Below, piece after piece: positions 17,042 through 50,415 of a DNA stretch of 64,000 nucleotides. The notes beneath the pieces were generated by a model. The model made no database searches. It was not told the DNA's origin and worked only from the letters and a program-made list of their open reading frames with translations. Location: assembly GCA_036525795.1 (NCBI GenBank), contig DATCZS010000112.1:8635-72634 (forward strand), written 5' to 3'. Every line of letters starts with the position of its first letter. Within the stretch, counting starts at the first letter, position 1. The stretch is from Acidimicrobiia bacterium. Lineage in GTDB: Bacteria; Actinomycetota; Acidimicrobiia; Spongiisociales; ZC4RG35. The position numbers and the translations under genes are program-made.

Positions 17042-17047
17042 CGGCGA

Positions 17048-19713: not shown

Positions 19714-19746
19714 TTCGCTGCCATGCGGACCCGATCTCCACAGGCT

Positions 19747-20270: not shown

Positions 20271-20318
20271 CCCATCACCCGGATCCCCACCCTCCGTACC
20301 CCGCGACACTTCCGCCGG

Positions 20319-20594: not shown

Positions 20595-20841
20595 AGAGAC
20601 ACAGACTGCGAGACCGAGTGCACGACCGTTCGTGTTCTTGATTCGCGCCTACCAGAAATTGGTAAGTCCTTCGCTTGGCAAGAACTGTCGATTCACCCCC
20701 ACCTGCTCGACGTACGCCGCCGAGGCGATGGGCCGCTTCGGCCCGGTGCGGGGTGGGTGGATGGCCGCCAAGCGGATCGGTCGTTGCCACCCTCTGGGCC
20801 CTTCCGGCTATGACCCCGTTCCGTCGACTCTGGAGCACTGA
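20584..20841 (+). CDS. yidD: membrane protein insertion efficiency factor YidD
   Basis: 85 aa; [35 protein letters not shown] signature. Confidence 0.85.
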
Positions 20842-20844
20842 CGT

Positions 20845-21744: not shown

Positions 21745-21746
21745 CC

Positions 21747-30499: not shown

Positions 30500-30503
30500 C
30501 GCG

Positions 30504-31334
30504 TCACGCCAACCGGTAGGCCACCCCCAGCGTGCCGGGACCGGAGTGGGTTCCGACCACCGGGCCGAGCTGGGAGACGATGGGGGTGCGGCCGGGAAGG
30601 ACACCGGCGATCGATTCAACGAACGGCTCGACGTCGGCGGCGTCTCCGTGGAGGACGGCCACCTCGACGATCCGGTCGGCGCGATCGCGCACGTGGGCAT
30701 TGAGGGCGTGCTTGGCCTTGGATCTGGTTCGGACCCTCCCCGCCGCGTTGACCACCCCGTCCTCGACCGCGATCAGCGGCTTGATGTCGAGCAGCGAGCC
30801 GACAAGCGCCTGCGCACCGCCGATCCGCCCTCCCCGCTTCAGGAACTCGAGTGTCTGCAGCGCTGCCAGGACGTGTGTCCCGTCTGCGGCGTCCACCGCC
30901 GCCGCCACGACCGCGGCGAGGTCGCCCCCGGCGGAAGCCGCCCGGGCTGCAGCGAGCACCGGGAGGCCGAGTCCCATGGACACCGTCCGCGAGTCGAGGA
31001 CCTTGATCGGGTATCCGAGCTGTTCGGCCGCGATCACAGCGGATTGGTAGGTCCCTGACAGTTGACCCGAGAGCGTCAGGGCGACGACGCCTGTGGCCCC
31101 GCCTTCGAAGAGGTTCTGGAAGGCCTGGAGGAAGCTACCGGCGCTGGGGGCGGCGGTCTCGGGAAGCTGGTCGGACGACCGCAGTTTCCTCCAGAAGTCT
31201 CCGGGTCCGAGGTCGCGGCCGTCGACGTACTCGTCTGATCCGAACCGGATCGTGAGAGGGACCACCTCGAGGCCGTACTGGTCCACCAGCGCCGGTGGGA
31301 GGTCGCACGACGAGTCGGTGACGATGCGAATCAC
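30504..31334 (-). CDS. DegV family fatty-acid-binding protein
   Basis: GTG start; IRIVTDSSCDLPPALVDQYGLEVVPL...; 277 aa. Confidence 0.85.
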   Translation of the reverse strand: MIRIVTDSSCDLPPALVDQYGLEVVPLTIRFGSDEYVDGRDLGPGDFWRKLRSSDQLPETAAPSAGSFLQAFQNLFEGGATGVVALTLSGQLSGTYQSAVIAAEQLGYPIKVLDSRTVSMGLGLPVLAAARAASAGGDLAAVVAAAVDAADGTHVLAALQTLEFLKRGGRIGGAQALVGSLLDIKPLIAVEDGVVNAAGRVRTRSKAKHALNAHVRDRADRIVEVAVLHGDAADVEPFVESIAGVLPGRTPIVSQLGPVVGTHSGPGTLGVAYRLA

Positions 31335-34340: not shown

Positions 34341-35810
34341 ATGATTCCCGAACGTCTGCGCTGGCTGTTCGACGGCGGCAGCGTCGCATCCCAACTCGGC
34401 GCGTTGTTCGACGGCACCGGCCACAGCCTCTACCTGGTGGGCGGGTCCGTCCGCGATGCCCTGCTCGGCCGTTCTCACGACGATCTCGACTTCACCACCG
34501 ATGCGCGTCCCGATCGCATCCGCGAGATCGTGGCCGATTGGGCCGACTCGGTCTACACCGTCGGTGAGGCGTTCGGGACGATCGGAGTCCGCAAGGGTTC
34601 CGACCTCTTCGAGATCACCACGTTTCGTTCTGATGTGTATCGCGAGGAGAGTCGCAAGCCTCAGGTGACCTTCTCGGACTCGATCGAGGAGGATCTGCGC
34701 AGGCGCGACTTCACGATCAACGCGGTGGCGATCGCCCTGCCGGGTGCCGAGACGATCGATCCGTACGGGGGTCTCCTCGACATGGCCAACGCCGTGCTTC
34801 GCACGCCTGCCGATCCGCACCTGTCCTTCTCAGACGACCCTCTCCGGATGCTCCGGCTGTTTCGGTTCCAGGCCACCCTCGGCTTCGAACCGGATCCGGC
34901 GGCGGTGGCCGCGGTGGGGGAGATGTCCGATCGGCTCTCGATCGTCTCGGCAGAGCGCATCCGCGACGAGTTCTCGAAACTCGTCACGGCTCCCGATCCG
35001 GGCCCGGCCCTCGCCGCGCTGGTCGAAGCCGGTCTCAGCGACCAGTTCCTGCCCGAGTTGTCCCGGCTCGCCATGGAACAAGACCCGGTTCATCGCCACA
35101 AGGACGTCCTCGCCCACACGATCGCCGTGATGCAGAAGGCCAGCCCCAGCCTCCGGCTCCGCCTGGCGGCGCTCCTCCACGACGTCGGCAAGCCGGACAC
35201 CCGGGAGTTCGGACCGAAAGGCGTGAGCTTCCATCACCACGAGGTGGTGGGAGCCCGCATGGCGCGCGACCGGCTGCGGGCGTTGCGCTATCCGAAAGAC
35301 GTGGTGCGCGACGTTCAGCAACTGGTGTTCCTGCACCTGCGACCCCACACGCTCAAGATGGGCTGGACCGATTCCGCCGTGCGCCGCTACGTGCGCGATG
35401 CCGGCGATCTGCTGGCGGATCTGAACGAACTGGTGCGCTGTGACGTCACCACTGCCAATGAGCGCCGGGCGGTGACCATCCAGAGGAGGATCGACGAACT
35501 CGAGGTCCGCATCGACGAGCTGGCCCGTCAGGAGGAGATCGAGCGCCTGCGCCCGCCGATCGACGGCAACGAGGTCATGACCTATCTCGGCATCCCGCCC
35601 GGGCCGATGATCGGCCGGGTGATGCACCTCCTCCTCGAGCGCCGCATCGACGAGGGGCCCTTCTCCCCCGCCGAGGCGTACGACATGGTCCGCGTCTGGG
35701 CCATCGGGCAGGGTCTCGACGACCCCGGCCCGGCTCCGGTGGGGAGCGATCGGGATCCGGCGGGGAGCGAGGCGGATGAGGACCGACGAGGGGTACCGCC
35801 GGGCGAGTGA
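34341..35810 (+). CDS. cca: CCA tRNA nucleotidyltransferase / poly(A) polymerase with HD domain
   Basis: LYLVGGSVRDALLGRSHDDLDFTT; HD domain; 489 aa; pcnA-like position. Confidence 0.85.
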   Translation: MIPERLRWLFDGGSVASQLGALFDGTGHSLYLVGGSVRDALLGRSHDDLDFTTDARPDRIREIVADWADSVYTVGEAFGTIGVRKGSDLFEITTFRSDVYREESRKPQVTFSDSIEEDLRRRDFTINAVAIALPGAETIDPYGGLLDMANAVLRTPADPHLSFSDDPLRMLRLFRFQATLGFEPDPAAVAAVGEMSDRLSIVSAERIRDEFSKLVTAPDPGPALAALVEAGLSDQFLPELSRLAMEQDPVHRHKDVLAHTIAVMQKASPSLRLRLAALLHDVGKPDTREFGPKGVSFHHHEVVGARMARDRLRALRYPKDVVRDVQQLVFLHLRPHTLKMGWTDSAVRRYVRDAGDLLADLNELVRCDVTTANERRAVTIQRRIDELEVRIDELARQEEIERLRPPIDGNEVMTYLGIPPGPMIGRVMHLLLERRIDEGPFSPAEAYDMVRVWAIGQGLDDPGPAPVGSDRDPAGSEADEDRRGVPPGE

Positions 35811-35831
35811 CGGCGGCCACCGGTTGATCGC

Positions 35832-35849
35832 TATGCGCATATGCGTATA
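35832..35849. promoter_or_regulatory. putative ArgR operator (ARG box) TATGCGCATATGCGTATA, 18-bp imperfect palindrome, 13 bp upstream of argC
   Basis: 16/18 symmetric; the same 22-nt motif tcgctatgcgcatatgcgtata recurs upstream of argR at 42406-42427. Confidence 0.55.
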
Positions 35850-35861
35850 CTGCCGGCACTC

Positions 35862-36899
35862 ATGACAGTCCGTCTCTCTGCCGCGGTACTCGGGGCGTCG
35901 GGTTATGCCGGCGGCGAGGTCGTGCGTCTTCTCGACGACCACCCGGTGTTCGATGTCGTCCACCTGGGAGCCCACAGTCTCTCCGGGAGGCGGCTGGGCG
36001 AGGTGCATCCCCACCTCGCCGGCGGGGACCGGGTGCTGAGCTCACAGGAGCCGGACGCCGTCCCCGAGGTGGATGTGGTGTTCCTCGCACTCCCTCATGG
36101 CGCCTCGTGGGAGATCGGCCACGCACTCGCCGAGCGGGGGTGCACCGTCGTCGACCTCGGAAGCGACTACCGCCTGGACACCGACGCCCGCTACCGGGAT
36201 GCGTACGGCTCTGCCCATCCGCTCCCCGACCAGCTCGGATCGTGGCGCTATGGACTGCCGGAGCTCTTCGACCTCGCGGGGGCCGATCGGATCGCCGCCC
36301 CCGGGTGCTATCCGACCGCCGTGGTGCTCTGTTTCGCCCCGCTGCTGGCGGCCGGGTTGGTGCAGGAGGGAGCGGTGGTGGTGGCCGACTGTCTGTCCGG
36401 CGTCTCGGGTGCGGGGCGGGGAGTGAAGGAGTCGCTGCTCTTCGGCGCCATCGACGAGGGAGTTCAGGCATACAAGGTCACCGAGCACCGGCACCGGCCC
36501 GAGATCGAAATGGCGCTCGGAGCCGCCAGCGGGAGGGAGCCGAAGGTGGTCTTCACGCCGCATCTCGTTCCGATGCTGCGCGGTGAACTGGCGACCGTCA
36601 CCGCCCCCCTCGCCCGGCTCGACCTCGACGCCAGGGACGCCAGGGGGATCCTCGCCGACGCGTACGCCGGGAGACCGTTCGTCGAGATCATCGACACCCC
36701 CCCTCAGACCCGATGGGCGGTGTCGTCCAACCGGGCCTTCCTGACCGCATTCGTCGATCACCACGCCGGCGTGATCATCGCCCAGGGAGCCATCGACAAC
36801 CTCGTGAAGGGGGCGGCCGGACAGGCCGTGCAGGCGGCCAACATCGCGTTCGGACTTCCCGAGGAGACCGGGTTGCCGCTGGCGGGGTGGATGCCGTGA
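35862..36899 (+). CDS. argC: N-acetyl-gamma-glutamyl-phosphate reductase
   Basis: MTVRLSAAVLGASGYAGGEVVRLL...; catalytic Cys region; ORF's first ATG (35841) lies inside the ARG box, so 35862 is preferred. Confidence 0.9.
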   Translation: MTVRLSAAVLGASGYAGGEVVRLLDDHPVFDVVHLGAHSLSGRRLGEVHPHLAGGDRVLSSQEPDAVPEVDVVFLALPHGASWEIGHALAERGCTVVDLGSDYRLDTDARYRDAYGSAHPLPDQLGSWRYGLPELFDLAGADRIAAPGCYPTAVVLCFAPLLAAGLVQEGAVVVADCLSGVSGAGRGVKESLLFGAIDEGVQAYKVTEHRHRPEIEMALGAASGREPKVVFTPHLVPMLRGELATVTAPLARLDLDARDARGILADAYAGRPFVEIIDTPPQTRWAVSSNRAFLTAFVDHHAGVIIAQGAIDNLVKGAAGQAVQAANIAFGLPEETGLPLAGWMP

Positions 36900-38059
36900 T
36901 CGGGGGAGTGACTGCTCCGGCCGGATTCTCCGCCAATGCCCTGCCGGCGGGCATCAAGAGTTCGGGTGATCTCGACCTGATGGCGCTCGTGGCCGACGAG
37001 ACGGTGCCCGCGGCGGCGGTGTTCACCACCTCGCGAACGGCGGCCGCCCCTGTGCTCCTCAGCAGGGACAGGATCGCCGGCGGGCGGACGCGGGGGGTGA
37101 TCGTCAACTCCGGCATCGCCAATGCGTCCACCGGACGCCGCGGCATGGAGGACGCCGAGTCCATGGCGGCCGCCCTCGCCCGCGAGGTCGGTGTCCCCGA
37201 GCGCGAGATCCTCGTGTGCTCGACGGGCACGATCGGCAACCGGCTTCCCATCTCGGACGTGGTCGACGCCGTGCCGGGGTTGGTGTCTGGGTTGGGCCGT
37301 ACGCCGGACCACGCCTACGCCGCAGCCCGGGGGATCATGACCTCCGACTCGGTCCCCAAGCAGTTCTCCGCCGAGGTCGGCGGGTACACGATCGGGGGGA
37401 TGGCGAAGGGAGCGGGGATGGTGCGCCCCGACCTGGCCACCATGCTGGCCTTTCTGACGACCGACGCGGTCGTGTCCCCCGACGTCGCAGCCGGGGCGCT
37501 GCGCAGAGCGGCCGATGTCACCTTCAACGCCTTGAACATCGATGGCTGTCAGTCCACCAACGACACGGTGCTGCTGATGTGTTCGGGTCTGTCGGGGGTC
37601 GAGCCGGATCCCGCATCCTTCGCAGACGCGCTGGGGGCGGCGTGCGGGGACCTGGCCGCCCAGATGGCCAGGGACGCCGAGGGTGCCTCCCGCGTGGTGA
37701 TCCTCGACGTCTCGGGCGCCCCGGACGAAGCCACCGCCCGCCGGCTGGGAATGGCGATCGCCGACTCGGCGCTGGTCAGGTCCTCGTTCTACGGGGCGGA
37801 TCCGAACTGGGGAAGGCTGGTGGCGGCGATGGGAACGGCGGGCGTCGAGATCGACGGAGACGCCATCGAGATCGCCTACGACGGCACCGTCATCGCGTCT
37901 CGGGGGGTGGCCGTGCCGGTGGACGAGGACGCCCTCAGTTCCCGGATGACGGGGGACTTCACGATCGGGATCACGGTTGGATCAGGTCCCGGCCGGGCCG
38001 CAGTGACCACCACCGATCTCACCCCCGAGTACGTTCGCTTCAACGGAGAACGCTCATGA
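36896..38059 (+). CDS. argJ: bifunctional ornithine acetyltransferase / N-acetylglutamate synthase
   Basis: GTG start overlapping the argC stop; VIGGVTAPAGFSANALPAGIK...; autoproteolytic ATML-like site (LATMLAFLTTDA). Confidence 0.9.
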   Translation: MIGGVTAPAGFSANALPAGIKSSGDLDLMALVADETVPAAAVFTTSRTAAAPVLLSRDRIAGGRTRGVIVNSGIANASTGRRGMEDAESMAAALAREVGVPEREILVCSTGTIGNRLPISDVVDAVPGLVSGLGRTPDHAYAAARGIMTSDSVPKQFSAEVGGYTIGGMAKGAGMVRPDLATMLAFLTTDAVVSPDVAAGALRRAADVTFNALNIDGCQSTNDTVLLMCSGLSGVEPDPASFADALGAACGDLAAQMARDAEGASRVVILDVSGAPDEATARRLGMAIADSALVRSSFYGADPNWGRLVAAMGTAGVEIDGDAIEIAYDGTVIASRGVAVPVDEDALSSRMTGDFTIGITVGSGPGRAAVTTTDLTPEYVRFNGERS

Positions 38060-38961
38060 CCGTCGGACACGGGGCCCCTCGCCCCGCCAAGGCCCGCATC
38101 GCCAATTCGATGGGCAAGGCATCCATCCTGATGGAGGCGCTTCCCTACATCCAGCGCTTCCGCACCCATGTGGTGGTGGTCAAGTACGGCGGTTCCACCA
38201 TGGAGGACCCGGCGCTCCGCACCAGCTTCGCCGGCGACATCACACTGCTGGCGACCGTGGGGATCCACCCGGTGATCGTTCACGGCGGCGGCCCCCAGAT
38301 CGACGAGGCGATGGCCAGAGAAGGCATCGAGCCCCGGTGGATCGACGGGTTGCGGGTCACAGACGCAGCCACCATGCGCGTCGTCCAGCGCGTCCTGGTC
38401 GGCGAAGTCAACGCCGACATCGTCCGGCTCCTGGCGGGTCACGGGGCCCATGCCATCGGGATCAACGGACTCGATGCCAACCTGCTGACGGCCGTCCCCC
38501 GCGACGAGCGCCTCGGATTCGTCGGTGACATCGAGCGCGTGAACGGAGACGTGGTTCGGAGGCTGCTGGGCGACGGCCTGGTCCCGGTGATCGCCCCGAT
38601 CGCCCGCGGCGCCGACGGGGAGATCTACAACATCAACGCAGACACGGCGGCGGCGGCCATCGCCACCGCCCTCGGCGCCCGCAAGCTGGTCTACCTGACG
38701 GATGTGGAGGGGGTCTATGCCGATCCTGCCAGCCCGGACTCGCTGATCGCCCGCATGGACGTCACCCGGCTCTGGCAGCTCCTCGAGACGATGAGCGGGG
38801 GAATGCTTCCGAAGCTGCAGTCGGTCGCGGGGGCTCTCGACGGCGGCGTCACCCGCGCCCACATCCTCGACGGCCGCGTCCAGCACGCGCTGCTCCTCGA
38901 GATGTTCACCCGGGAGGGGGTCGGAACGATGATCACCCAGGACGGAGATGATCGACCGTGA
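38056..38961 (+). CDS. argB: acetylglutamate kinase
   Basis: ATG overlapping the argJ stop; VVVKYGGSTM...; 301 aa. Confidence 0.9.
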   Translation: MTVGHGAPRPAKARIANSMGKASILMEALPYIQRFRTHVVVVKYGGSTMEDPALRTSFAGDITLLATVGIHPVIVHGGGPQIDEAMAREGIEPRWIDGLRVTDAATMRVVQRVLVGEVNADIVRLLAGHGAHAIGINGLDANLLTAVPRDERLGFVGDIERVNGDVVRRLLGDGLVPVIAPIARGADGEIYNINADTAAAAIATALGARKLVYLTDVEGVYADPASPDSLIARMDVTRLWQLLETMSGGMLPKLQSVAGALDGGVTRAHILDGRVQHALLLEMFTREGVGTMITQDGDDRP

Positions 38962-40124
38962 GTTCGATCATCGAGCGAGAGCACCGGGCGGTGATGCAGA
39001 CCTATGGGCGAACCCCGGTGGTGTTCGTCGAAGGCCGGGGATCCTGGCTCTTCGACGAACACCGGAAGAGGTACCTGGACTGTCTGACAGGCCTGGCCGT
39101 GGTCTCTGTTGGTCACGCCAACCCGAGGGTGGCCGAGGCGGTCAGCGAGCAGATGCGCAGGCTCGTCCACGTCTCCAACCTCTACTACACCGAGCCGATG
39201 GTGCAGTTGGCCGAGAAGCTCCGCAGCCGCTCCGGTCTCGATCGCATCTTCTTCGCCAACTGCGGGGCAACCGCCAACGAGGCGGCGATCAAGCTGGCCA
39301 GGCGGTGGGGTCAGACGACGAAGGGGGATCACTGCTACGAGATCGTGTCGCTGAACGACTCGTTCCACGGCAGGAGTCTGGCGACGCTGGCCGCCACCGG
39401 ACAGCCCGCCAAACAGGCCACCTTCCAGCCGCTGCCGCCCGGGTTTCGCCAGGTTCCCGGCGGAGACCTCGCGGCGATGGAGGAAGCCGTGAACGCCTCG
39501 ACCGCAGCGGTGATGGTGGAGACGACACAGGGGGAGGGAGGCGTCGTACCTCTGTCGGCCGGGTATCTGACGGCGCTCCGGGCGCTGTGCGACGAGCGAC
39601 AGGTGCTGTTGATCGTCGACGACGTCCAGGCAGGCATGGGGCGAACCGGGTCGTGGTTCTCGTGGCAGCAGCTGGGATTCGCCCCGGATATCGCCACAGT
39701 GGCCAAGGCGCTCGCCAACGGCCTGCCGATCGGTGCTGCCATGGCCGGCGAAGCCGTGGCGGAAGCGTTCCGGCCGGGAGACCACGCCACGACCTTCGGG
39801 GGAGGCCCGGTGGTCTGCGCCGCCGCCAACGCCGTGTTCGCCGAGATGGAGGATCGCGACGTCCTCGCCAATGTCGCCGCCCGGAGCGAGCAGTTGCGGG
39901 CCGGCCTGGAGTCGCTGGCCGGGGTGGCGTCGGTGCGGGGACGTGGACTGCTGTGTGCGGCGGTGCTCGAGGATGATCGTGCCGCAGAAGTCGCGGCGAC
40001 GGCCCTGGCAGCCGGTCTGATCGTCAATGCCGTCCGTCCGGACGCCGTCCGTTTCGCCCCGCCCCTCACCATCACCGAGGACGAGGTCGCCACGGCAGTC
40101 GGTCTGTTCGGGGATTCGCTCTGA
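38958..40124 (+). CDS. argD: acetylornithine aminotransferase
   Basis: GTG overlapping the argB stop; class III PLP aminotransferase motifs (LIVDDVQAGMGRTG). Confidence 0.9.
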   Translation: MSSIIEREHRAVMQTYGRTPVVFVEGRGSWLFDEHRKRYLDCLTGLAVVSVGHANPRVAEAVSEQMRRLVHVSNLYYTEPMVQLAEKLRSRSGLDRIFFANCGATANEAAIKLARRWGQTTKGDHCYEIVSLNDSFHGRSLATLAATGQPAKQATFQPLPPGFRQVPGGDLAAMEEAVNASTAAVMVETTQGEGGVVPLSAGYLTALRALCDERQVLLIVDDVQAGMGRTGSWFSWQQLGFAPDIATVAKALANGLPIGAAMAGEAVAEAFRPGDHATTFGGGPVVCAAANAVFAEMEDRDVLANVAARSEQLRAGLESLAGVASVRGRGLLCAAVLEDDRAAEVAATALAAGLIVNAVRPDAVRFAPPLTITEDEVATAVGLFGDSL

Positions 40125-40272
40125 CCGTCGGGGGTCCGAGCCGTCGTCGGTGACGGCCCAGGCCTCGGCGTGCTCACACCTCGAACGCCGGCATGGATAC
40201 GTCGCCTCGCCCTTCGTCACCCGGTGTGACGGCGCGCCTCACGGGTGAGTCGAAGCGGGCGAACGGTGGCGA

Positions 40273-40695
40273 TCAGCCGGTGAGGCGCTCGTTGCTCGCC
40301 GCCCGCTCCTCGGCGATCGATCTCAGTTCCGCCGCGACTTTGGGGTGCTTTTCGACCAGACCGGCGAAGGCCCTTCCGCTCATCACGAGCATCTTCGATG
40401 CGGCGGACGTGACCACGGTCGCGGTTCTCTTCCCCTTCTTCAGCAACGCCATCTCGCCGAGCACGGCTCCCGGTCCCACCTCGCCGACCTTCTCGCCCCC
40501 GATGACCACGTCGGCGGCCCCCTCGACGATGATCATGAGCTCGTAGGGGAACGATCCCTCGGTCATCAGTGTCGTCCCTGCCGCCATCTCCACGTCGTCG
40601 ATGAACGGGGCGAGAGCCCGCAGCTTGCGGTCCCCGAGCTGCGCGAACAGGGCGCTCGTCATCATCCGGTCGATCTTCGGGTCCCTCTTCCGCAT
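40273..40695 (-). CDS. cyclic nucleotide-binding domain protein (standalone cNMP-binding)
   Basis: FPYELMIIVEGAADVVIGG...GPGAVLGEMALL...RTATVVTSAASKMLVM; about 140 aa; no DNA-binding domain evident. Confidence 0.75.
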   Translation of the reverse strand: MRKRDPKIDRMMTSALFAQLGDRKLRALAPFIDDVEMAAGTTLMTEGSFPYELMIIVEGAADVVIGGEKVGEVGPGAVLGEMALLKKGKRTATVVTSAASKMLVMSGRAFAGLVEKHPKVAAELRSIAEERAASNERLTG

Positions 40696-40819
40696 CTCTG
40701 TGCCTCCGCAATGGTCGTGCGCGGTCGCTGACACTAGGGCGCGGATGCCGGCTCCAGTGCCGGAATGCACCGGATTTCCACGGAGCCGGGCTCCGGCCGC
40801 CTCCCACTACGCTCGGCTC

Positions 40820-41401
40820 ATGACGCTGCCTACCTCCTCTGCGGCCGAATTCGTGGTCATCCAGGACGGATCGGCGCGACCCAATGTCCGGTCCTCCGTG
40901 TCGCTGATCCGCGACGGTGAACACCTGATCGTCGTCGATCCGGGGATGGCTCCCTCGCAGAGAGCGATCCTCGGACCACTGGCGCGTCTCGGAGTGGAGC
41001 CGGCTCAGGTCACCGACGTGATCATCAGCCACCATCACCCAGACCACACGGTCAACGTCGGCCTCTTCGGCGAGGCCAAGGTCCACGACCACTGGGCGAC
41101 CTACCACTTCGACCAGTGGCGTTCCCGGTCCGCCGAGGGGTTCTCGGTGTCTCCTTCGGTGGTGTTGTGGGAGACGCCCGGTCATACGCCCCAGGACATC
41201 AGCACGCTGGTGGGCACCCCTGACGGCCTCGTGGTGTGCACCCACCTCTGGTGGTTCGCCGAGGGCCCGGAGGACGACCCCCTGGCGGCCGACAGCGGTG
41301 CACTCCACGCCGGGCGCGCCCGGGTGCTCGCCGCCCATCCGGCGATGATCGTCCCCGGGCACGGGCCTGCATTCGAACCGACCGGATCGACCCCCCGTTG
41401 A
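40820..41401 (+). CDS. MBL-fold metallo-hydrolase
   Basis: HHHPDH motif, later HGPAF; start at MTLPTSSAAEF. Confidence 0.7.
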   Translation: MTLPTSSAAEFVVIQDGSARPNVRSSVSLIRDGEHLIVVDPGMAPSQRAILGPLARLGVEPAQVTDVIISHHHPDHTVNVGLFGEAKVHDHWATYHFDQWRSRSAEGFSVSPSVVLWETPGHTPQDISTLVGTPDGLVVCTHLWWFAEGPEDDPLAADSGALHAGRARVLAAHPAMIVPGHGPAFEPTGSTPR

Positions 41402-41436
41402 CTCCGTATTCCGGTCTCACCGTGCGCGGACGGGCG

Positions 41437-42375
41437 ATGCGTCTGCGGCGGTTGGTGGACGAGGCCTTGGTCGAGTACGCCATCGAACCGGTTCGGGTTC
41501 GGTTGCTCACCAACGACTTCAACGGCATCTTCCGGGTCGACACCGCCGATGGTGACAGGGTGGTGGTGCGGGTGGTGCTCCCCTCCGGAGGCCACCAACC
41601 CCATCAGGTCGCAGCCCAGGCGATGTTCGCCGAGGCGGTGGCCGGTGGCACCGATCTCCTGGTGCCAGTCCCGATTCGCAACAGGCGGGGCGACCTGGTC
41701 ACGGTCGCCTCCGCCCCCGGTGTACCGGAGCCCCGCATGTGCCTGGTGACCTCGTGGGTGCCAGGGGTGGACCTGGCGGAGCGGATGTCGACAGGAAACT
41801 GGGAGAGGCTCGGTCGGCTGATGGCCAGACTCCACACGTTCGCAGAGTCGTGGTCGCCGCCGGATGGGTTCGAGACCATCACCTACGACCGGGTGGTCCA
41901 TTTCGGTGAGCCGGTGGTGTTGTTCGAACCCCAGGCCGAGGCGGTGCTCTCCACCGAGCAGCAACGGGTCCTCGAACGGGCGATCGACAGGATCGACGCT
42001 CGGATCGCCTCGCTCTCCGGTCCGCGGATCGTCACCCACGGCGACCTGCACCAGTGGAACGTGAAGGTGGATCGCACCAGGCTTCACCCGATCGACTTCG
42101 AGGACCTGCAGTGGGCCCATCCACTCCAGGACGTGGCGACCACGTTCTATTACCTCCGCAGGCGAGACGATCGCTCGGAGTTGGCCGGGGCGTTTCGGCG
42201 GGGATACGCCGAGACTCGCCCGTGGGTCGAGGAGGAGGCGGGCGAGGTGGCGGCCCATGTGGTTGCCAGGGGAATCGACCTGGTCAACTTCGTGATCTGG
42301 TGTCCCGAGGAGGATGCGGGCGAGTACCGCGAACTGATCGACGGTGTGGTGGAGGCGGCGAGGGGACTGGGGTGA
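41437..42375 (+). CDS. phosphotransferase enzyme family (APH-like) kinase
   Basis: Brenner-like motif HGDLHQWNV, downstream DFEDL; 312 aa. Confidence 0.75.
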   Translation: MRLRRLVDEALVEYAIEPVRVRLLTNDFNGIFRVDTADGDRVVVRVVLPSGGHQPHQVAAQAMFAEAVAGGTDLLVPVPIRNRRGDLVTVASAPGVPEPRMCLVTSWVPGVDLAERMSTGNWERLGRLMARLHTFAESWSPPDGFETITYDRVVHFGEPVVLFEPQAEAVLSTEQQRVLERAIDRIDARIASLSGPRIVTHGDLHQWNVKVDRTRLHPIDFEDLQWAHPLQDVATTFYYLRRRDDRSELAGAFRRGYAETRPWVEEEAGEVAAHVVARGIDLVNFVIWCPEEDAGEYRELIDGVVEAARGLG

Positions 42376-42409
42376 CCGGACCGAGGGCCAGGGTCACGGC
42401 TTGAGTCGC

Positions 42410-42427
42410 TATGCGCATATGCGTATA
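42410..42427. promoter_or_regulatory. putative ArgR operator (ARG box) TATGCGCATATGCGTATA upstream of / overlapping the argR start
   Basis: identical 18-mer to the site upstream of argC. Confidence 0.55.
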
Positions 42428-42895
42428 ATGCCGTCTTCGCCCATGTCGACCACCGCCGCCCGCCGCCGCATCATTCGCAGCCTGATCCTCGAGCGCTCGA
42501 TCGGGAGTCAGGCAGAACTGGTCGAGATCCTGGGCGAGAAGGGGCACGAAGTGACCCAGGCCACCGTGTCGAGAGATCTCCACGTGATCGGTGCCGTCAA
42601 GCACGACGGCGATCACTACGTGCTCGGCGGTCGATCCGACCCGGACGAGGCGATCGCCTACCTGGCCCGCACGGTCGACGAGTTCGTCGAGTCGATCCAG
42701 GCGAGCGGCAATCTCGTCGTGCTGCGCACCCCACCCGGGGCCGCCCAGGTGGTGGCGGCCGCCATCGACGGCGCCCGCCTTCCGGAGGTGGTCGGCACGG
42801 TCGCCGGCGACGACACCATCCTGGTGATCGCATCCGAGCGCGCCTCCGGGCGGGCACTCGCATCCAGACTCGAAGACACAGGAGCCAATCCATGA
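42428..42895 (+). CDS. argR: arginine repressor ArgR
   Basis: winged helix ([25 protein letters not shown]) plus C-terminal oligomerisation/arginine-binding domain (GDDTILVI); alternative starts at 42419 or 42443. Confidence 0.85.
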
Positions 42896-44097
42896 AGGTG
42901 GTACTCGCCTACTCCGGCGGCCTCGACACGTCGGTCATCCTCACCTGGCTGAAGGAGGAGTACGACGCGGACGTCATCGCCTACACCGCCGACATCGGTC
43001 AGGGGGAGGAGGTGGCCGAGGCGAAGGCGAAAGCCATCGCCACAGGCGCCTCGCAGGCCATCGTCGAGGACCTCACTCCCGAATTCGTGTCTGAGGCGGT
43101 GTTCCCCGCCATACGGGCGAACGCCGTGTACGAGAACTACTACCTGCTCGGGACGTCGCTCGCCCGCCCCATCATCACCAGGGGAATGATGCGGGTGGCG
43201 AGAGAGCACGGAGCGGACGCCATCGCCCACGGCGCCACCGGCAAGGGGAACGACCAGGTTCGGTTCGAGCTCTCCGCCTACGCCATCGACCCGGACATCC
43301 GGGTGATCGCCCCTTGGCGGGAGTGGAAGCTGCGCGGCCGGGCCGATTGTGTCTCATACGCCCAGGCGCGGGGGATCCCGGTGCCGGTCACCAAGGAGAA
43401 GCCCTATTCGATGGACGCCAACCTGCTCCACATCTCCTACGAGGGCGGGGTGCTGGAGGATCCGTGGGAGGGGCCTCCGCCCGGCATGTTCCGGATGACG
43501 AAGGACCCCGAGGACGCTCCGGACGAGGCGCAGTCGGTGACCGTCACCTTCGAGAGGGGAAACCCGGTCGCCCTCGACGGCCAGGAGCTGTCACCCGTCG
43601 ATCTGCTCACGAGGGCCAACCAGATCGCCGGCGCCCACGGGGTGGGACGGGTGGACATCGTGGAGAACCGCTTCGTGGGGATGAAGAGCCGGGGCGTCTA
43701 CGAGACCCCGGGAGGGACCCTTCTCCATCATGCCCACCGGGCGGTGGAGTCGATCACCCTCGACCGCGAGGTGGCCCATCTCCGCGACGAGCTGGTGCCC
43801 CGCTATGCCGAGATGGTCTACAACGGGTTCTGGTTCGCTCCCGAGCGGGAGGCTCTCCAGAAGTTCATGGACGACATCCAGAGGCGGGTCAACGGCGAGG
43901 CGCGCCTCAAGCTCTACAAGGGCAACTGCACGATCGAGGGACGCCGGTCCGCCAAGCACGCCCTGTACGACCACCGCACCGTCACCTTCGAAGAGGACGA
44001 GGGCGTGTACGACCAGGCAGACGCCGCCGGGTTCATCCGTCTGAACGCCCTGCGTCTGCGCCGCCTGGCCGAAAACAGGTTGGGAGAAGGAGAGTGA
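42892..44097 (+). CDS. argG: argininosuccinate synthase
   Basis: [17 protein letters not shown]; 401 aa. Confidence 0.95.
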
Positions 44098-44155
44098 GCG
44101 TGCGGCTCGTGACCCTGGACCCGGGATTCGGGACCGGAACTGGGCCGGAGGCGCC

Positions 44156-45514
44156 GTGACTCTCTGGGGCGGCCGGTTCGACGAAGGGCCCAGCGAGCTT
44201 CTGTGGGACTACACCGTGTCGGTCGCCGACCGTCGGCTGCTGGTGGACGACGTGGAGGGGTCCATCGCCCATGTGGGGATGCTCGCCAAGGTGGGAATCC
44301 TCGCGGCACAGGAATACGAGGACATCATCGCCGGGCTCAGACGGATCCAGGCCGACGCCCTCGACGGGACCTTCGAGTTCCTCGACACGGACGAAGACGT
44401 CCATTCGGCGGTCGAGCGGCGCCTGATCGAGCTGGTGGGCGAGGTGGGCAAGAAGCTGCACACCGGGCGGTCCCGCAACGACCAGATCGCCCTCGACATC
44501 CGCCTCTACCTCCGCAGGGCCGCCCGGGATCGGGTCGAGCAGCTGTCGTCGTTCGGGCTGACGCTGGTGCGGCTCGCCGGCGAGCACGCCACCACCATCG
44601 TTCCCTCCTACACCCACCTGCAGCAGGCGCAGGCCGTCCCGCTCGGCCACCATCTTCTCGCCTACGCCTGGATGGCCCAACGCGACCGGCTGCGGTTCAA
44701 GGACCTCATCGACCGGCTCGGGGTGTCTCCGCTCGGGGCGGGGGCATCGGGGGGTTCGAGCCTGCCGCTCGATCCGGTCGAGTCCGCCACCCGGCTCGGC
44801 TTCGGGGTGGTCTTCGCCAATTCGATGGACGCCGTGGCTTCCCGGGATCTCGTGGCCGAATACGCCTGGTGCTGTGCCCAGGCGATGGTCCATGCCTCCC
44901 GCCTGGCGGAGGAGCTGGTGCTGTGGGCCACCTCCGAGTTCGGCTGGGTCACGTTCGGCGACGACTACACCACCGGCAGCTCGGCGCTGCCCCAGAAGAA
45001 GAACCCGGACATCGCCGAGCTGGCGAGGGGCAAGTCGGCCGGTGCGATCGGCGAGCTGATGGCACTGCTCACGTTGCAGAAGGGTCTGCCGCTCACCTAC
45101 AACCGGGACCTGCAGGAGGACAAGGAACACGTCTTCCGGGCCGACGACACGCTGGCCGGCACGCTGGCCGCGCTCACCGGGATGCTGGAGTCGGCCGAGT
45201 TCCATCCGCCGGAGCCTTCACCATGGGTGACCGCCCTGGACCTGGCCGAGGCGCTGGTGTCCCGGGGCGTCCCGTTCCGGGAGGCCCACGGGGCGGTGGG
45301 CCGCCTGGTCACCGCCCTGCTCGCCGACGGGCGCGATCTCGGTCAGGCCACCGAGGCCGACCTGCTGAACGCCGACGATCGCTTCGAGCGCGAGGATCTC
45401 GTCCGGATCGACGTCCGCGATTCGGTCGACCGCCGGATCACGATGGGCGGCGGCTCGGTCGAGTCCGTCCACCAACAGATCGACGCCCTCCGCGCCCTCC
45501 TCACCTGGGACTGA
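44156..45514 (+). CDS. argH: argininosuccinate lyase
   Basis: GTG start; LWGGRFDEGPSELLWDYT; fumarate-lyase signature GSSALPQKKNPD. Confidence 0.95.
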   Translation: MTLWGGRFDEGPSELLWDYTVSVADRRLLVDDVEGSIAHVGMLAKVGILAAQEYEDIIAGLRRIQADALDGTFEFLDTDEDVHSAVERRLIELVGEVGKKLHTGRSRNDQIALDIRLYLRRAARDRVEQLSSFGLTLVRLAGEHATTIVPSYTHLQQAQAVPLGHHLLAYAWMAQRDRLRFKDLIDRLGVSPLGAGASGGSSLPLDPVESATRLGFGVVFANSMDAVASRDLVAEYAWCCAQAMVHASRLAEELVLWATSEFGWVTFGDDYTTGSSALPQKKNPDIAELARGKSAGAIGELMALLTLQKGLPLTYNRDLQEDKEHVFRADDTLAGTLAALTGMLESAEFHPPEPSPWVTALDLAEALVSRGVPFREAHGAVGRLVTALLADGRDLGQATEADLLNADDRFEREDLVRIDVRDSVDRRITMGGGSVESVHQQIDALRALLTWD

Positions 45515-45551
45515 CACACAGTCCCGACGCAGCTGGGGGTGGGGGTGATGG

Positions 45552-45593
45552 TCCCCCACGTAGGTGGGGGAAGGTCCCTGCGAGCCCGCAGGG
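45552..45593 (+). terminator. two consecutive GC-rich hairpins after argH (TCCCCCAC-GTAG-GTGGGGGA; CCCTGCG-AGCC-CGCAGGG)
   Basis: read directly; 38-80 nt after the argH stop. Confidence 0.4.
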
Positions 45594-45769
45594 CTCGGTG
45601 GTAGGGGGATCGGTCCCACCCACCAGGCGGTACCGTGACCACATCCGTGTGGTGGCTTGGGGCGCGGGCGCGACATCCCGTGCAGCCGGCGTGTGAGCCA
45701 TGGACACACCAGCCATGACCACTGACCGGTTGGCCACGGCGCCGCAGGCGCCGGAGTACCATCGCCGCG

Positions 45770-46615
45770 GTGGACCGCGAAACCCTCATCAGGACCATCA
45801 CCTCCGAGGTGCTCGCCCAGCTCGCCCCGGGCGAATGCGAGAACTGCGGAGGTACCTGCGCCGCCCACAGCCCGGACAAGGTGCGGTCGATGGTGGCGAA
45901 CGGCGCCGGTCGGGTCTCCTATCGCGGCCATGGTCCTGCCGTCCCCTCCGACCTGGCCGGATTCATCGATCACACCCTGCTCAAGCCGGACGCGTCGTCT
46001 GCGGACATCGATCGGCTCTGCTCCGAAGCGGTCGAGCACGACTTCGCCGCCGTCTGTGTCAATCCCGCCTGGGTGAGGCGCGCCGCCGAGAAGGTGAAGG
46101 GATCGAGGGTTCGGGTGGCGTCGGTGGTGGGGTTTCCCTTCGGTGCGACCTACCCCGAGATCAAGGCGATGGAGGCCCGCCGGGTGCTGCGTGACGGCGC
46201 CCGCGAGGTGGACATGGTGATCAACATCGGGGCGCTCAGGTCCGGCGACCACGACCTGGTGCGGGATGACGTCGCCAGGGTGTCCGACGCCTGTCACGAG
46301 GTGGGGGCGCTCAACAAAGTGATCATCGAGACCGCCCTCCTCACCGACGAGGAGAAGGTGGTGGCCTGCCATCTGGCCAAGGAGGGGCGGGCCGACTTCG
46401 TCAAGACCTCTACCGGCTTCGGCGGCGGCGGCGCCACGGTTCGCGACGTGCTCCTGATGCGGGAGACGGTCGGCCCCAAGCTGGGAGTGAAGGCCTCGGG
46501 AGGCGTTCGAGACAAGAGCGCCGCAATGGAGATGATCGCCGCCGGGGCCACCAGAATCGGGGCGTCCGCCTCGGTGGCAATCGTGTCTGGAGGGACCTCG
46601 AATGAACGGTATTGA
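45770..46615 (+). CDS. deoC: deoxyribose-phosphate aldolase with ~60-aa N-terminal extension resembling a BMC encapsulation peptide
   Basis: GTG start; extension [16 protein letters not shown] (amphipathic, PduP/PduD EP-like) plus Cys-containing linker [13 protein letters not shown]; DeoC core IDHTLLKP...Schiff-base Lys in [10 protein letters not shown]. Confidence 0.85.
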
Positions 46616-47225
46616 CCTCAGGGCGTTCGCCTTTCTCGACAGCCTTCAGCCGCAGTACGCCGCGTTCATCGGCACCACCGCCCAGGGCTTCCTGCCACTG
46701 GCCTACGAGGCGTCCCTGTTCGTCGAGATCTCGCCCGGAATAGAGATCAATCGGCTCACGGACGTCGCGCTCAAGGCGACAACGGTCAAGCCGGGAATGC
46801 AGATCGTCGAGCGGGTCTTCGGCCTGCTCGAGATCCACTCGCCGGACCAGGCGGAGACCCGGGCAGCCGGGGCGGCCATCCTTGCCGAGATCGACCACGT
46901 CGAGAACGACCGGCGCAAGCCCAAGATCCTGTCGAGCCAGATCGTCCGCCGCGTCGACGACCACCAGGCCCAGCTCATCAACCGGATGCGCCACGGGCAG
47001 ATGCTGATTCCCGGTCAGACGCTGTACGTGCTCGAGTGCGAGCCGGCCGCATACGCCGCCCTCGCCGCCAATGAGGCGGAGAAGGCTGCCAACATCAACG
47101 TGCTCGAGGTACGGGCGTTCGGCGCGGTCGGCCGGGTGTACCTCGGTGGCGAAGAGCGCGACATCGACGTCGGCTGGCGAGCGGCGGTCGCGGCACTCGA
47201 AGGTCTGGAAGGACGAGAAGACTGA
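46602..47225 (+). CDS. BMC shell protein, permuted tandem-domain type (EutL/PduB-like BMC-T)
   Basis: 207 aa; two permuted BMC halves ([25 protein letters not shown] resembles EutL [23 protein letters not shown]); RBS GGAGGG; overlaps deoC by 14 nt. Confidence 0.7.
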
Positions 47226-47250
47226 GACAGGCGAAGGAGAGGAGGCCGTC

Positions 47251-47541
47251 ATGGCCGATGCACTTGGAATGATCGAAGCCAGGAGCTTCGCGGCGATGGT
47301 CGAGGCGGCCGACGCAATGGTCAAGGCGGCCAAGGTCGAGTTGGTGAGCTACGAGAAGACCGGCGGTGGGTACACGACCGCCATCGTGCGCGGCGACGTC
47401 GCCGCCGTGAAGGCGGCGGTCGAGGCCGGGATCCGCGGCGCCGAGCGGGTGGGCGAAGTCGTCGCCAGCCATGTCATCGCCCGTCCCCACGCCAACATCG
47501 ACGAGGTGCTTCCGCTGGGCCGGCAGGGCGAGGGCGAGTAG
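47251..47541 (+). CDS. BMC-H hexameric shell protein (PduA/EutM-like)
   Basis: MADALGMIEARSFAAMVEAADAMVKAAKVELVSYEKTGGGYTTAIVRGDVAAVKAAVEAG...HVIARPH; strong RBS GAAGGAGAGGAGG. Confidence 0.92.
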   Translation: MADALGMIEARSFAAMVEAADAMVKAAKVELVSYEKTGGGYTTAIVRGDVAAVKAAVEAGIRGAERVGEVVASHVIARPHANIDEVLPLGRQGEGE

Positions 47542-47547
47542 TCCGCC

Positions 47548-47835
47548 GTGCTGCTGGGACGGGTCGTCGGGACGGTGGTGGCGAGCCGCAAGGAGGCGCG
47601 GCTGGCTGGGCTCACGTTCCTGCTGCTCCGCCAGGTCGACGTCGAGGGAGCCGAGACGGGCGCATATGTCGTCGCCGCAGACGCCGTCGGGGCGGGGGTC
47701 GACGAGATCGTCATGTACGCCACCGGCAGTTCCGCACGTCAGACCACCCAGACGGACGCCCGTCCCTGCGACGCCGTCGTGATGGCCATCGTGGACACAT
47801 GGGAGGTCGGCGGTGACGTCAAGTACCAGAAGTAG
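47548..47835 (+). CDS. BMC-P pentameric vertex protein (EutN/CcmL family), copy 1
   Basis: GTG start; [27 protein letters not shown]...[24 protein letters not shown]. Confidence 0.85.
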
Positions 47836-47838
47836 CCC

Positions 47839-49296
47839 GTGACGACGATCTCCTCGGACCAGATAGCCCGGATCATCGAGACGGTCGATCGGCGGCTGGG
47901 AGAGGTGGCGTCGAGCCCGCGACCGGCCGAGGCGTCTCGAGTCCGGGGCGAGGAGGGGCTCGAGCCGCTCGGGGACGGGATCCATCGGACCATCTCCGAT
48001 GCGGTGGCCGCAGCCAGGCGCGCCCAGGGCGAGTACTCGAAGCTGGGGCTGGCAGCGCGGCACAGGGTGGTCGAGTCGATCCGGAGCTCGATGCTCTCCC
48101 ACGCCGAGGATCTCGCCCTCCGGGCCCACACCGAAACGGGCCTGGGGAGGTACGAGGACAAGGTCAAGAAGAACCGACTGGTCACGACCAAGGCGCCGGG
48201 ACCCGAAGACCTCGAGCCGCAGGCCCAGACCGGGGACGAGGGGATGGTGCTCATCGAGTGGGCCCCGGTGGGGCTGGTCGGCGCCATCACCCCCACCACC
48301 AACCCGACGTCGACGATCATCAACAACACGATCTCGGTGGTCTCGGCGGGGAACGCCGTCGTCTTCAACGTCCACCCGAACGCCAAGCGGGTCTCTGCCT
48401 ACAACATCAAGCTCTTGAACCAGGCGATCACCGCCGCAGGCGGGCCGGCGGATCTCGTCACCGGCATTCCGATGCCCACCATCGAGTCGGCCAAGGAGCT
48501 GATGCATCACCCGGACATACGGGTGCTGCTGGTGACCGGCGGCCCTGGCGTCGTCAGCGAGGCGTTGAAGACCGACAAGCGGGCGGTGGCGGCCGGTCCG
48601 GGCAACCCGCCGGTGGTCGTGGACGAGACCGCCGACCTGGAACGGGCGGCGGCCCACATCGTGGCGGGGGCCTCGTTCGACAACAACATCATCTGCACAG
48701 ACGAGAAGGAGGTGATCGTTGTCGCCTCGGCGGCCGAGCGCCTCGTCCGGTCGATGGAGCGGGCCGGTGCGTACGTGCTCAAAGAGCATGAGCTCCGCCG
48801 TCTTGAGCGGGTGATCTTCACCGAGCTGGGTCCGCCGGGAAAGCCCGGTCACATCAACCCGGCCTGGATCGGCCAGAACGCATCGAAGATCCTCGCGGAG
48901 ATCGGCGTCACCGTGGGAGATGAGCTGCGGTTGATCGTGGCGGAGGTCCCGATCGAACACAGTCTGGTGTGGACCGAGCAGATGATGCCGGTGCTGCCGG
49001 TCGCCCGGGTGCCGAACGTCGACGCCGCCATCGAGTTGGCGGTCAGAGCAGAGCACGGATTCCGCCACACGGCCGGCATCCACTCCACCAACGTCGACAC
49101 CATCACCCGGATGGCTCAGGCGATGAACTGCTCGATCTTCGTCTCGAACGGTTCGTTCTTCGCCGGTCTGGGTGAGGGCGGGGAGGGCTATTCCTCGTTC
49201 TCCATCGCCAGCCCCACCGGAGACGGCCTCACCCGTCCCCGGACCTTCAGCCGGCCCCGCCGGGTCACCATGGTCGGATCGCTGAGGGTGGTGTGA
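47839..49296 (+). CDS. CoA-acylating aldehyde dehydrogenase (PduP/EutE-like) with N-terminal encapsulation peptide
   Basis: GTG start; EP SDQIARIIETVDRRL; ALDH core incl. catalytic Cys in FDNNIICTDEKE; 485 aa. Confidence 0.9.
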   Translation: MTTISSDQIARIIETVDRRLGEVASSPRPAEASRVRGEEGLEPLGDGIHRTISDAVAAARRAQGEYSKLGLAARHRVVESIRSSMLSHAEDLALRAHTETGLGRYEDKVKKNRLVTTKAPGPEDLEPQAQTGDEGMVLIEWAPVGLVGAITPTTNPTSTIINNTISVVSAGNAVVFNVHPNAKRVSAYNIKLLNQAITAAGGPADLVTGIPMPTIESAKELMHHPDIRVLLVTGGPGVVSEALKTDKRAVAAGPGNPPVVVDETADLERAAAHIVAGASFDNNIICTDEKEVIVVASAAERLVRSMERAGAYVLKEHELRRLERVIFTELGPPGKPGHINPAWIGQNASKILAEIGVTVGDELRLIVAEVPIEHSLVWTEQMMPVLPVARVPNVDAAIELAVRAEHGFRHTAGIHSTNVDTITRMAQAMNCSIFVSNGSFFAGLGEGGEGYSSFSIASPTGDGLTRPRTFSRPRRVTMVGSLRVV

Positions 49297-49874
49297 TGCG
49301 CCCGGCGCTCGCCATCATCGAGTTCGACTCCATCGCGGTAGGGATCGAGGCCGGGGATGCCATGGCCAAGAGGGCGGTGGTCGACCACCTGCGGGCCGGA
49401 ACGGTTCATCCCGGGCGCTACCTGGTGCTGATCGCCGGGCCGGTGGGCGAGGTCGAGGAGGCGTTCGCCGCCGGGCGCATGGTCGGTCAGGGTTCGATCT
49501 CCGATTCGATGCTGCTGGCAGACATCGACCAGCGGGTGGTCGACGGACTGGTGGGGGTGCGGGCGGTCGGAGCCGGCGAGGCCATCGGCGTCGTCGAGAC
49601 CCGTTCCGTCCCGGCGATCATCGAGGCGGCAGACGCCGGCGTGAAGGGCGCAGAGGTGACCCTCAGAGAGGTGCATCTCGCCGACGGACTGGGGGGCAAG
49701 GGCTATCTGCTGTTCAGTGGCCCCGTCTCGGAGGTGGAGGTCGCCGTCGACCTGGCCGTGGAGCGCGCCGGGGAGCGGCTCGTGGCGTCGAGGGTCATCT
49801 CCCAGATCCACGACGAGATGGATGAGAATCTGATCGACGCCCGCCGTTTCGCCGACCGGACGAGACCGTCGTGA
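49293..49874 (+). CDS. BMC-T tandem-domain shell protein (PduT-like)
   Basis: 193 aa; two BMC domains (LAIIEFDSIAVGIEAGDAMAKRAVV... and IGVVETRSVPAIIEAADAGVKGAEVTL...); overlaps the AldDH stop. Confidence 0.75.
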   Translation: MMRPALAIIEFDSIAVGIEAGDAMAKRAVVDHLRAGTVHPGRYLVLIAGPVGEVEEAFAAGRMVGQGSISDSMLLADIDQRVVDGLVGVRAVGAGEAIGVVETRSVPAIIEAADAGVKGAEVTLREVHLADGLGGKGYLLFSGPVSEVEVAVDLAVERAGERLVASRVISQIHDEMDENLIDARRFADRTRPS

Positions 49875-50149
49875 AGCTGGCCCGGGTCATCGGGACGGTT
49901 GTTGCCACCGAGAAGACACCCCATCTGGAAGGCGTGAAGTTCCTCATCATCCAGCCCCTCACCAAGCGGCTCGAACCGTCCGGCGAGCCGGTGGTGGCCG
50001 CGGACGGAGTGGCGATGGCAGGGCCGGGGGACATGGTCTACTTCGTGGGCTCGCGCGAGGCCGCCCAGGCGATGCCCGAGCCCTTCGTTCCGGTGGATCA
50101 CGCGATCGTCGGCATCGTCGATCAGGTGGCGCACGGGGGCGCGACGTGA
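49871..50149 (+). CDS. BMC-P pentameric vertex protein, copy 2
   Basis: GTG start; MKLARVIGTVVATEKTPHLEGVKFLII...VVAADGVAMAGPGDMVYFVGSREA. Confidence 0.8.
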   Translation: MKLARVIGTVVATEKTPHLEGVKFLIIQPLTKRLEPSGEPVVAADGVAMAGPGDMVYFVGSREAAQAMPEPFVPVDHAIVGIVDQVAHGGAT

Positions 50150-50415
50150 AGCTCGCCAGGGTGTCGGGGACCGTCGTCTCCACCATCCACTCGCCGGTGT
50201 TCGCCGGGCGGCGCCTGCTGCTCTGCGACTATCTCGATGCGGGCGGCGAGGTCACAGACGACTACGTGATCGCCGTGGACGTCGTCGACGCAGGACCGGG
50301 CGAGATTGTGCTGATCATGGACGAGGGGAACGGCGCCCGCCAGATCCTGGAACAGGCGGTCGCCCCGGTGCGGGCCATGGTGGTGGGAATCGTCGACGAG
50401 GTCCAGGGCGGCTGA
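50146..50415 (+). CDS. BMC-P pentameric vertex protein, copy 3
   Basis: GTG start; MKLARVSGTVVSTIHSPVFAGRRLLLC...VIAVDVVDAGPGEIVLIMDEGNGAR. Confidence 0.8.
   Translation: MKLARVSGTVVSTIHSPVFAGRRLLLCDYLDAGGEVTDDYVIAVDVVDAGPGEIVLIMDEGNGARQILEQAVAPVRAMVVGIVDEVQGG

Follow-up and report, generated by a model that had tools for sequence, protein, structure and literature searches.

A stretch of 64,000 nucleotides from contig DATCZS010000112.1 of an Acidimicrobiia bacterium (assembly GCA_036525795.1; here referred to as "the window") carries an arginine biosynthesis (arg) cluster in which argF, the gene for ornithine carbamoyltransferase (OTC), is missing and three non-arg genes lie between argD and argR. 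We consider it quite likely that this is the standard argF-less cluster of Acidimicrobiia, argCJBD...argRGH, which would form two arginine-repressible units, with OTC encoded elsewhere in the genome and with the argD-argR junction as a tolerated insertion site.

The arg loci of related genomes were compared with that of the window. A scan of GTDB species representatives gave 27 loci, nearly all labelled Acidimicrobiia, with ArgR identities of 43-71%, and the closer relatives L155 and L156 were reached through a search for homologues of the MBL-fold protein encoded in the window, so that 29 relatives' loci were examined overall (single loci and contigs are cited here by L numbers). OTC is found between argD and argR in none of them (0/29), and none has it within ±10 kb either. 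In 13 loci argR directly follows argD, abutting or overlapping it (L014, L018-L022, L024-L027, L030 and L032, plus low-GC metagenome lineages), and the order in these loci, the common one in the class, is CCA-adding enzyme, argC, (argJ), argB, argD, argR, argG and argH. The initial annotation had reasoned from Mycobacterium and Corynebacterium that argF should lie between argD and argR. Because all 29 relatives lack argF at the locus and 13 have argD and argR side by side, that expectation is inapplicable here; the "usual position" of argF was a framing borrowed from other orders and no observation, and a displacement of argF from the cluster is not borne out, as no examined relative has the gene there. 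The argCJBDFRGH clusters of M. tuberculosis and C. glutamicum share with the window the same enzymes and the same order of argC, J, B, D, R, G and H, but differ from it and from every examined Acidimicrobiia relative by having argF between argD and argR.

Pfam and NCBIfam searches bore out the gene content and order previously assigned to the cluster, and the coordinates agree with those of genes called independently on a metagenome scaffold of identical sequence. The genes of the cluster are as follows, in window coordinates.

35862-36899, plus strand: argC (Pfam PF01118 and PF22698; independent gene call)
36896-38059, plus strand: argJ, bifunctional ornithine acetyltransferase / N-acetylglutamate synthase (Pfam PF01960; NCBIfam NF003802, 407.8 bits, cut-off 351)
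38056-38961, plus strand: argB, acetylglutamate kinase (Pfam PF00696; independent gene call)
38958-40124, plus strand: argD, acetylornithine aminotransferase (Pfam PF00202; NCBIfam TIGR00707, 437 bits, cut-off 410)
40273-40695, minus strand: cNMP-binding protein, standalone domain, 140 aa, convergent with argD (Pfam PF00027)
40820-41401, plus strand: MBL-fold metallo-hydrolase, 193 aa, with HHHPDH motif (Pfam PF00753)
41437-42375, plus strand: APH/RdoA-like phosphotransferase-family protein, 312 aa (Pfam PF01636)
42443-42895, plus strand: argR, arginine repressor, 150 aa (Pfam PF01316, E=8e-16, and PF02863, E=7e-25; TIGR01529 argR_whole, 133.8 bits, cut-off 130.45)
42892-44097, plus strand: argG, argininosuccinate synthase (Pfam PF00764 and PF20979)
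44156-45514, plus strand: argH, argininosuccinate lyase (Pfam PF00206 and PF14698)

Judged by its domains and motifs, the protein encoded at 42443-42895 is a bona fide ArgR. Both the N-terminal winged-helix DNA-binding domain and the C-terminal arginine-binding/oligomerisation domain are present in Pfam, the TIGR01529 cut-off is exceeded, and among solved structures M. tuberculosis ArgR (3ere, E=5e-28) comes closest, the recognition-helix motif TQATVSRDL and the arginine-binding motif GTVAGDDT being conserved in the alignment to it. The same ArgR protein is present on many metagenome contigs, the longest being a 210-kb ENA scaffold. As the argR stop and the argG start overlap (ATGA) and argH begins only 58 nt past argG, argRGH probably forms one unit. 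The best solved-structure match of the MBL-fold protein is human MBLAC1 (4v0h, E=1e-15). The window that encodes the standalone cNMP-binding protein also holds a class III adenylate/guanylate cyclase gene (PF00211; about 7398-8192, minus strand; L033 3832-4626), with a BTAD/Trans_reg_C regulator gene near it.

The initial annotation had named a mis-called argF within the argD-argR interval as something that would overturn its view. No such gene was found: the three open reading frames (ORFs) of the interval are the cNMP-binding, MBL-fold and APH-family genes, none of them has an OTC or aspartate carbamoyltransferase (ATCase) domain in Pfam, and tblastn with OTC queries was negative. The queries were E. 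coli ArgI and M. tuberculosis ArgF, both validated as OTCs by Pfam. At E<=0.01 neither matched anywhere in the 64-kb window, in ±10-kb scaffold extensions, in the 29 relatives' loci or in 120 metagenome contigs, and 1.27 Mb of sequence gave no match overall. The absence of argF thus holds for the interval, as had been claimed, and for the whole window besides. Weighing against the reading we prefer is that argF was not found in about 80 kb around the cluster (scaffold positions 76216-156293), a stretch that reaches about 52 kb upstream and 28 kb downstream from argR and has no OTC-fold gene. No papers on argF of Acidimicrobiia were found.

It may be supposed from these negative searches that the lineage has no canonical OTC at all and obtains citrulline by another route, or imports citrulline or ornithine derivatives, possibly with participation of the MBL-fold protein coupled to argD. 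The lack of any OTC/ATCase-fold gene in the 1.27 Mb, including the 80 kb around the cluster and the 29 relatives' arg loci, agrees with this supposition, and so does the overlap of the MBL start with the argD stop in 5 relatives. However, the operon retains argG and argH, both intact and conserved, hence the cell needs citrulline; the sequence covered was only a small part of each genome; carbamoyl-transfer chemistry is implausible for an MBL-fold hydrolase; and most Acidimicrobiia arg clusters have no MBL gene. Moreover, an unlinked OTC is documented in Streptomyces: S. coelicolor has the order argCJBDR, and its OTC gene, arcB, is unlinked and separately controlled by ArgR (PMC3293853). We therefore regard a lineage without OTC as extremely unlikely. 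With argG and argH intact, the same arrangement found class-wide and the Streptomyces precedent, an unlinked OTC gene elsewhere in the genome is very likely and by far the best candidate explanation.

The second part of the evidence concerns the control regions. The 22-mer TCGCTATGCGCATATGCGTATA occurs exactly twice in the window, at 35828-35849 and 42406-42427, and 0 of 100 shuffles matched this. A repeated 22-nt motif had been reported earlier and is confirmed as two exact copies, although the positions then given, 35832-35849 and 42410-42427, are those of the inner 18-mer TATGCGCATATGCGTATA. The spacing described for argC also holds, as 12 nt separate the end of the first copy from the argC ATG. 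The second copy, contrary to what had been stated, does not overlap the start of argR but stops 15 nt short of its ATG at 42443. Only two sigma-70-like promoters were found in the 10.3 kb of 35500-45800 (shuffle mean 0.5), and both coincide with the motif. The control elements, all on the plus strand, are listed below.

35824-35851, plus strand: predicted argC promoter, TTGATC-16-TATACT (consensus scan; ATG at 35862)
35832-35849, 16-nt core 35833-35848, plus strand: ARG-box-like operator 1, TATGCGCATATGCGTATA, overlapping the spacer and -10 of the argC promoter
42401-42429, plus strand: predicted argR promoter, TTGAGT-17-TATAAT (consensus scan, 10/12 consensus positions; ATG at 42443)
42410-42427, core 42411-42426, plus strand: ARG-box-like operator 2, TATGCGCATATGCGTATA, putative autoregulatory site before argR

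At both promoters the palindrome occupies the spacer and extends into the -10 hexamer. The start codons stand 10 nt (argC) and 13 nt (argR) past the -10 hexamer, and both transcripts are therefore predicted to be essentially leaderless. A search of the 64-kb window with up to 3 mismatches to the 16-nt core returned the same two sites and no further operator, and a second tandem ARG box, sought in the flanks and in the window, was likewise not present at <=3 mismatches.

These sites are conserved far beyond the window. The core AT[G/A]CGCATATGCG[T/C]AT, mostly followed by A-N-T of the -10 hexamer, is found 11-36 nt upstream of argC in relatives class-wide, and 15 further relatives have an orthologous operator in front of argR, at a distance of 10-41 nt. 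The argR site is present throughout the clade that has insertions between argD and argR, and also in L014, which has no insertion, and in L016. In L014 the argD-argR gap is 45 bp without any inserted gene, yet it holds the palindrome and then a TATACT hexamer. Scanning JGI metagenome contigs for the exact 16-mer gave at least 120 contigs, and in at least 23 of these the motif directly precedes argC or argR. Several of the 23 or more belong to lineages of 38-39% GC whose ArgC is only about 35% identical, and the longer ones show argCJBDR(GH) without argF. When the operator was used as a handle for argF, no OTC adjoined a 16-mer site among the at least 120 metagenome contigs.

The initial annotation had also held that the insertion of the three genes created the second operator. 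This is not supported, given the orthologous argR site in L155 (MBL only), L156 (APH lost) and L014 (no insert): since the operator occurs in relatives lacking these genes, it was not made by them. A recent promoter-operator duplication was rejected as the main explanation, the argR site having orthologues in relatives; the near-identity of the two window copies is mainly due to their both matching the class-wide operator consensus. Against this stands the observation that the two copies match at 28/29 ungapped positions and, with one indel, also share the TTGA of the -35 hexamer, a few more flank bases than are shared by the site pairs of L012, L014 and L110, so that some local copying or gene conversion may have occurred. 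A small local homogenisation of the two copies is possible, but it is unnecessary for explaining the observation.

We then have to ask whether the palindrome is an ArgR operator. Read as TGCGC-ATAT-GCGTA, TATGCGCATATGCGTATA is an imperfect palindrome of about 18 bp with the outer TG...CA and the A/T centre of an ARG box, and a perfectly palindromic variant, ATACGCATATGCGTAT, occurs in relatives. It overlaps the promoters of arginine genes and is conserved across species, as expected of an operator. Single-box ARG operators are known (PMC3293853), and the half-site ATGCGTA, the right half of the palindrome, is present in the best and strongest ARG box of S. coelicolor, that of argG (PMC5839063). 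Several features weigh against an ArgR operator. The half-site is TGCGC and not the canonical TGAAT or TGCAT, with two inner positions differing per half-site, and there is a single box per promoter, unlike the pair of tandem boxes usual in Streptomyces and E. coli. The identical 16-mer ATGCGCATATGCGTAT also precedes ArsR/SmtB-like helix-turn-helix regulator genes on unrelated high-GC metagenome contigs (L058 341-356 and L078 1727-1742), and the palindrome alone is therefore not diagnostic. The context of the 16-mer on these two contigs is promoter-like (TTGACA...TATAGT), and a second related palindrome adjoins it in L058 and L038.

The palindrome might accordingly be read as a promoter-associated element or as the site of another regulator. 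Its inner half-site bases, which are unlike those of known ARG boxes such as the Streptomyces boxes (PMC5839063), its occurrence as one box only and its position in front of the ArsR/SmtB-like genes of L058 and L078 would all suit such a reading. On the other side, the motif tracks exactly the argC and argR promoters in more than 35 loci, down to an ArgC identity of about 35%; the conserved cluster encodes no regulator other than ArgR; in length, dyad symmetry, outer TG...CA and A/T centre the motif agrees with an ARG box; and control of argC together with autoregulation are the classical targets of ArgR (PMC3293853). We consider a role unconnected with ArgR quite unlikely.

Under the ArgR reading, argCJBD and argRGH would be two units, each with its own palindrome-overlapped promoter, and binding of ArgR to both sites is what we infer from the motif. 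Since argRGH has its own promoter overlapped by the same palindrome as that of argCJBD, argR is probably autoregulated. Of the earlier claim of two separately ArgR-controlled units created by the insertion, the first part thus stands by inference from two promoters with ARG-box-like palindromes, while the second part, their creation by the insertion, does not. No convincing terminator was found by consensus scan after argD or APH, which also counts against us, and the unit boundaries are for this reason assumed from gene orientation and promoters; folding of the convergent argD/cNMP spacer was not significant (z=-1.6). In the mechanism we propose, each unit would be driven by its sigma-70-type promoter to give a nearly leaderless transcript, with one 16-18-bp palindromic ARG-box-like operator lying across the spacer and -10 hexamer of each promoter. 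Arginine-loaded ArgR on the operator would occlude RNA polymerase, so that argCJBD would be repressed and argRGH negatively autoregulated. The two copies would be class-wide consensus sites and no fresh duplication.

The proposed arrangement resembles the argCJBDR cluster of Streptomyces (S. coelicolor SCO1580-1576; S. clavuligerus) in its order argC-J-B-D-R without argF and in the putative operator at the argC promoter, an imperfect palindrome as are the Streptomyces boxes of 18-20 nt at which ArgR represses. It differs from Streptomyces in that argG and argH appear joined to argR in one unit and argR has its own predicted promoter and operator, in the single box instead of two contiguous ones and the half-site TGCGC instead of TGCAT, and in the non-arg genes between argD and argR. 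In E. coli, where the arg genes are scattered, argR is autoregulated through ARG boxes overlapping its promoter, which are two tandem 18-bp boxes of the consensus TNTGAATWWWWATTCANW. The repressor gene of the window is likewise preceded by a promoter-overlapping putative operator, an arrangement for negative autoregulation, but unlike in E. coli the palindrome is single and richer in GC and argR heads a predicted argRGH unit.

The genes between argD and argR have different histories. In a rough neighbor-joining tree of ArgG, ArgH and ArgR, the window falls inside a monophyletic clade with an MBL gene after argD and an operator before argR. MBL homologues follow argD in L006-L008, L011, L012, L015, L110 and L155, and the homologues of the clade are 63-69% identical to the MBL-fold protein of the window. 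In five loci, L006 (2414-2420), L007, L008, L011 and L012, the start codon of MBL and the stop codon of argD overlap (ATGA or GTGA), so that MBL is probably translationally coupled to argD there; in the window this coupling is broken by the cNMP gene. The gap between MBL and argR in the relatives holds 3-7 kb of unrelated and varying cargo, including an EamA transporter, two CNNM/CorC genes, an FAD-dependent reductase and unknown proteins, all unrelated to arginine. ORFs of about 680-790 aa were seen in the argD-argR gap of L006 (3857-6175), L008 (3845-6205), L013 (1575-3731), L015 (3904-6030) and L016 (7805-9850); the four that were scanned, those of L006, L013, L015 and L016, have no Pfam match.

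The two closest relatives allow the later events to be placed in order. L155, whose ArgR is 90% identical, has argCJBD-MBL-argRGH with neither cNMP nor APH. L156, with about 84% nucleotide identity, has argD-cNMP-MBL followed by 184 nt, the operator and argR, and in these 184 nt only the two ends of APH, 5' and 3', are left, joined to each other (remnant at L156 2700-2850), the sequence corresponding to window 41479-42317 (about 840 bp) having been deleted at a GAGTAC microhomology. Of the relatives, L156 alone has the cNMP gene, which is missing even from L155, and APH is found only as the remnant in L156 and is absent from the other relatives; its nearest homologues outside the species cluster are about 51% identical and come from mixed phyla. 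At the place that corresponds to the cNMP gene of the window, the argD-MBL spacer of L155 (9873-10069) consists of short tandem repeats (GTCCCAG-like and GTGCCAC-like). From this distribution, the MBL insertion is old and clade-wide and cNMP and APH are recent, lineage-specific additions, and APH appears to be dispensable cargo that was recently gained and already lost again in the sister lineage. As MBL is clade-wide while cNMP and APH are younger, there was no single insertion, and the view of the three genes as one insertion is not supported.

This history also bears on the possibility that the ancestral cluster was argCJBDFRGH, as in Mycobacterium and Corynebacterium, that the insertion of three foreign genes cost it argF, and that a duplication of the argC promoter-operator in front of argR restored control. 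The identity of the two copies over 22 nt, their 28/29 ungapped matches and shared TTGA with one indel, their greater flank identity than in the site pairs of L012, L014 and L110, and an APH gene that has no close relative in the clade, as would fit a gene acquired from elsewhere, can be cited for it. Against it, no Acidimicrobiia relative examined has argF at the argD-argR position; the argR operator is orthologous in L155 (no cNMP or APH), in L006-L015 (other cargo) and in L014 (no cargo); and the MBL gene is clade-wide with cNMP and APH younger. Base composition lends it nothing either, as the GC content of the argD-argR interval (0.65-0.70) is not distinct from that of the flanks; composition as a test of a foreign origin of the cNMP, MBL and APH genes was thus uninformative. 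The scenario of loss by insertion is largely refuted by synteny, and we regard it as very unlikely. We instead propose that in a cluster type that does not carry argF an MBL-fold gene would have settled early at the argD-argR junction of one clade, often translationally coupled to argD, that other junction cargo varies between genomes, and that this lineage would have gained cNMP and APH recently, with APH then deleted in the sister lineage.

Several features of the surrounding DNA were also recorded. The region of the replication origin lies at window 11109-22634, with gyrA, gyrB, recF, dnaN and dnaA (18316-19788, minus strand), and past dnaA there is a gap of about 1 kb followed by yidC and jag, both on the plus strand; only about 16 kb separate the arg cluster from dnaA. 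Directly 3' of argH, at window 45770-50400, there is a bacterial-microcompartment locus that contains, according to Pfam, a DeoC-type aldolase, a CsoS1D-like shell protein, BMC-H proteins, three EutN/CcmL vertex proteins and an aldehyde dehydrogenase. From about 60.5 kb of the window to beyond its right end (L034 10929-17877) runs a histidine-utilisation operon with genes for histidine ammonia-lyase, urocanase, amidohydrolases and a GntR regulator. Two large ORFs, at window 2632-4743 (703 aa) and 29171-30700 (509 aa), have coding-type GC3 and no Pfam domain.

There is, finally, a reading under which the locus would hold more novelty. MBL may be a member of the argCJBD operon in one clade and, because its start overlaps the argD stop in five genomes, might serve arginine or ornithine metabolism, for example in the hydrolysis of side products or lactams or in salvage; separately, the ARG operator of the class, diverged, richer in GC and made of a single box, may be of a kind not previously described as recognised by ArgR. 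We rate this as unlikely. The finding is real but ordinary, for it is a well-known kind of system, and it has little significance beyond annotation, with the argD-coupled MBL-fold gene as the only lead worth an experiment. Of minor interest are the diverged class-wide operator consensus, the argD-coupled MBL in one clade and the junction of argD and argR, a gene-insertion hotspot with a readable history, in which a series of gains and losses can be dated. Gene order in Mycobacterium and Corynebacterium should not be used as a guide to synteny in Acidimicrobiia, and the operator consensus given above may be used for the prediction of ArgR regulons in this largely uncultured class.

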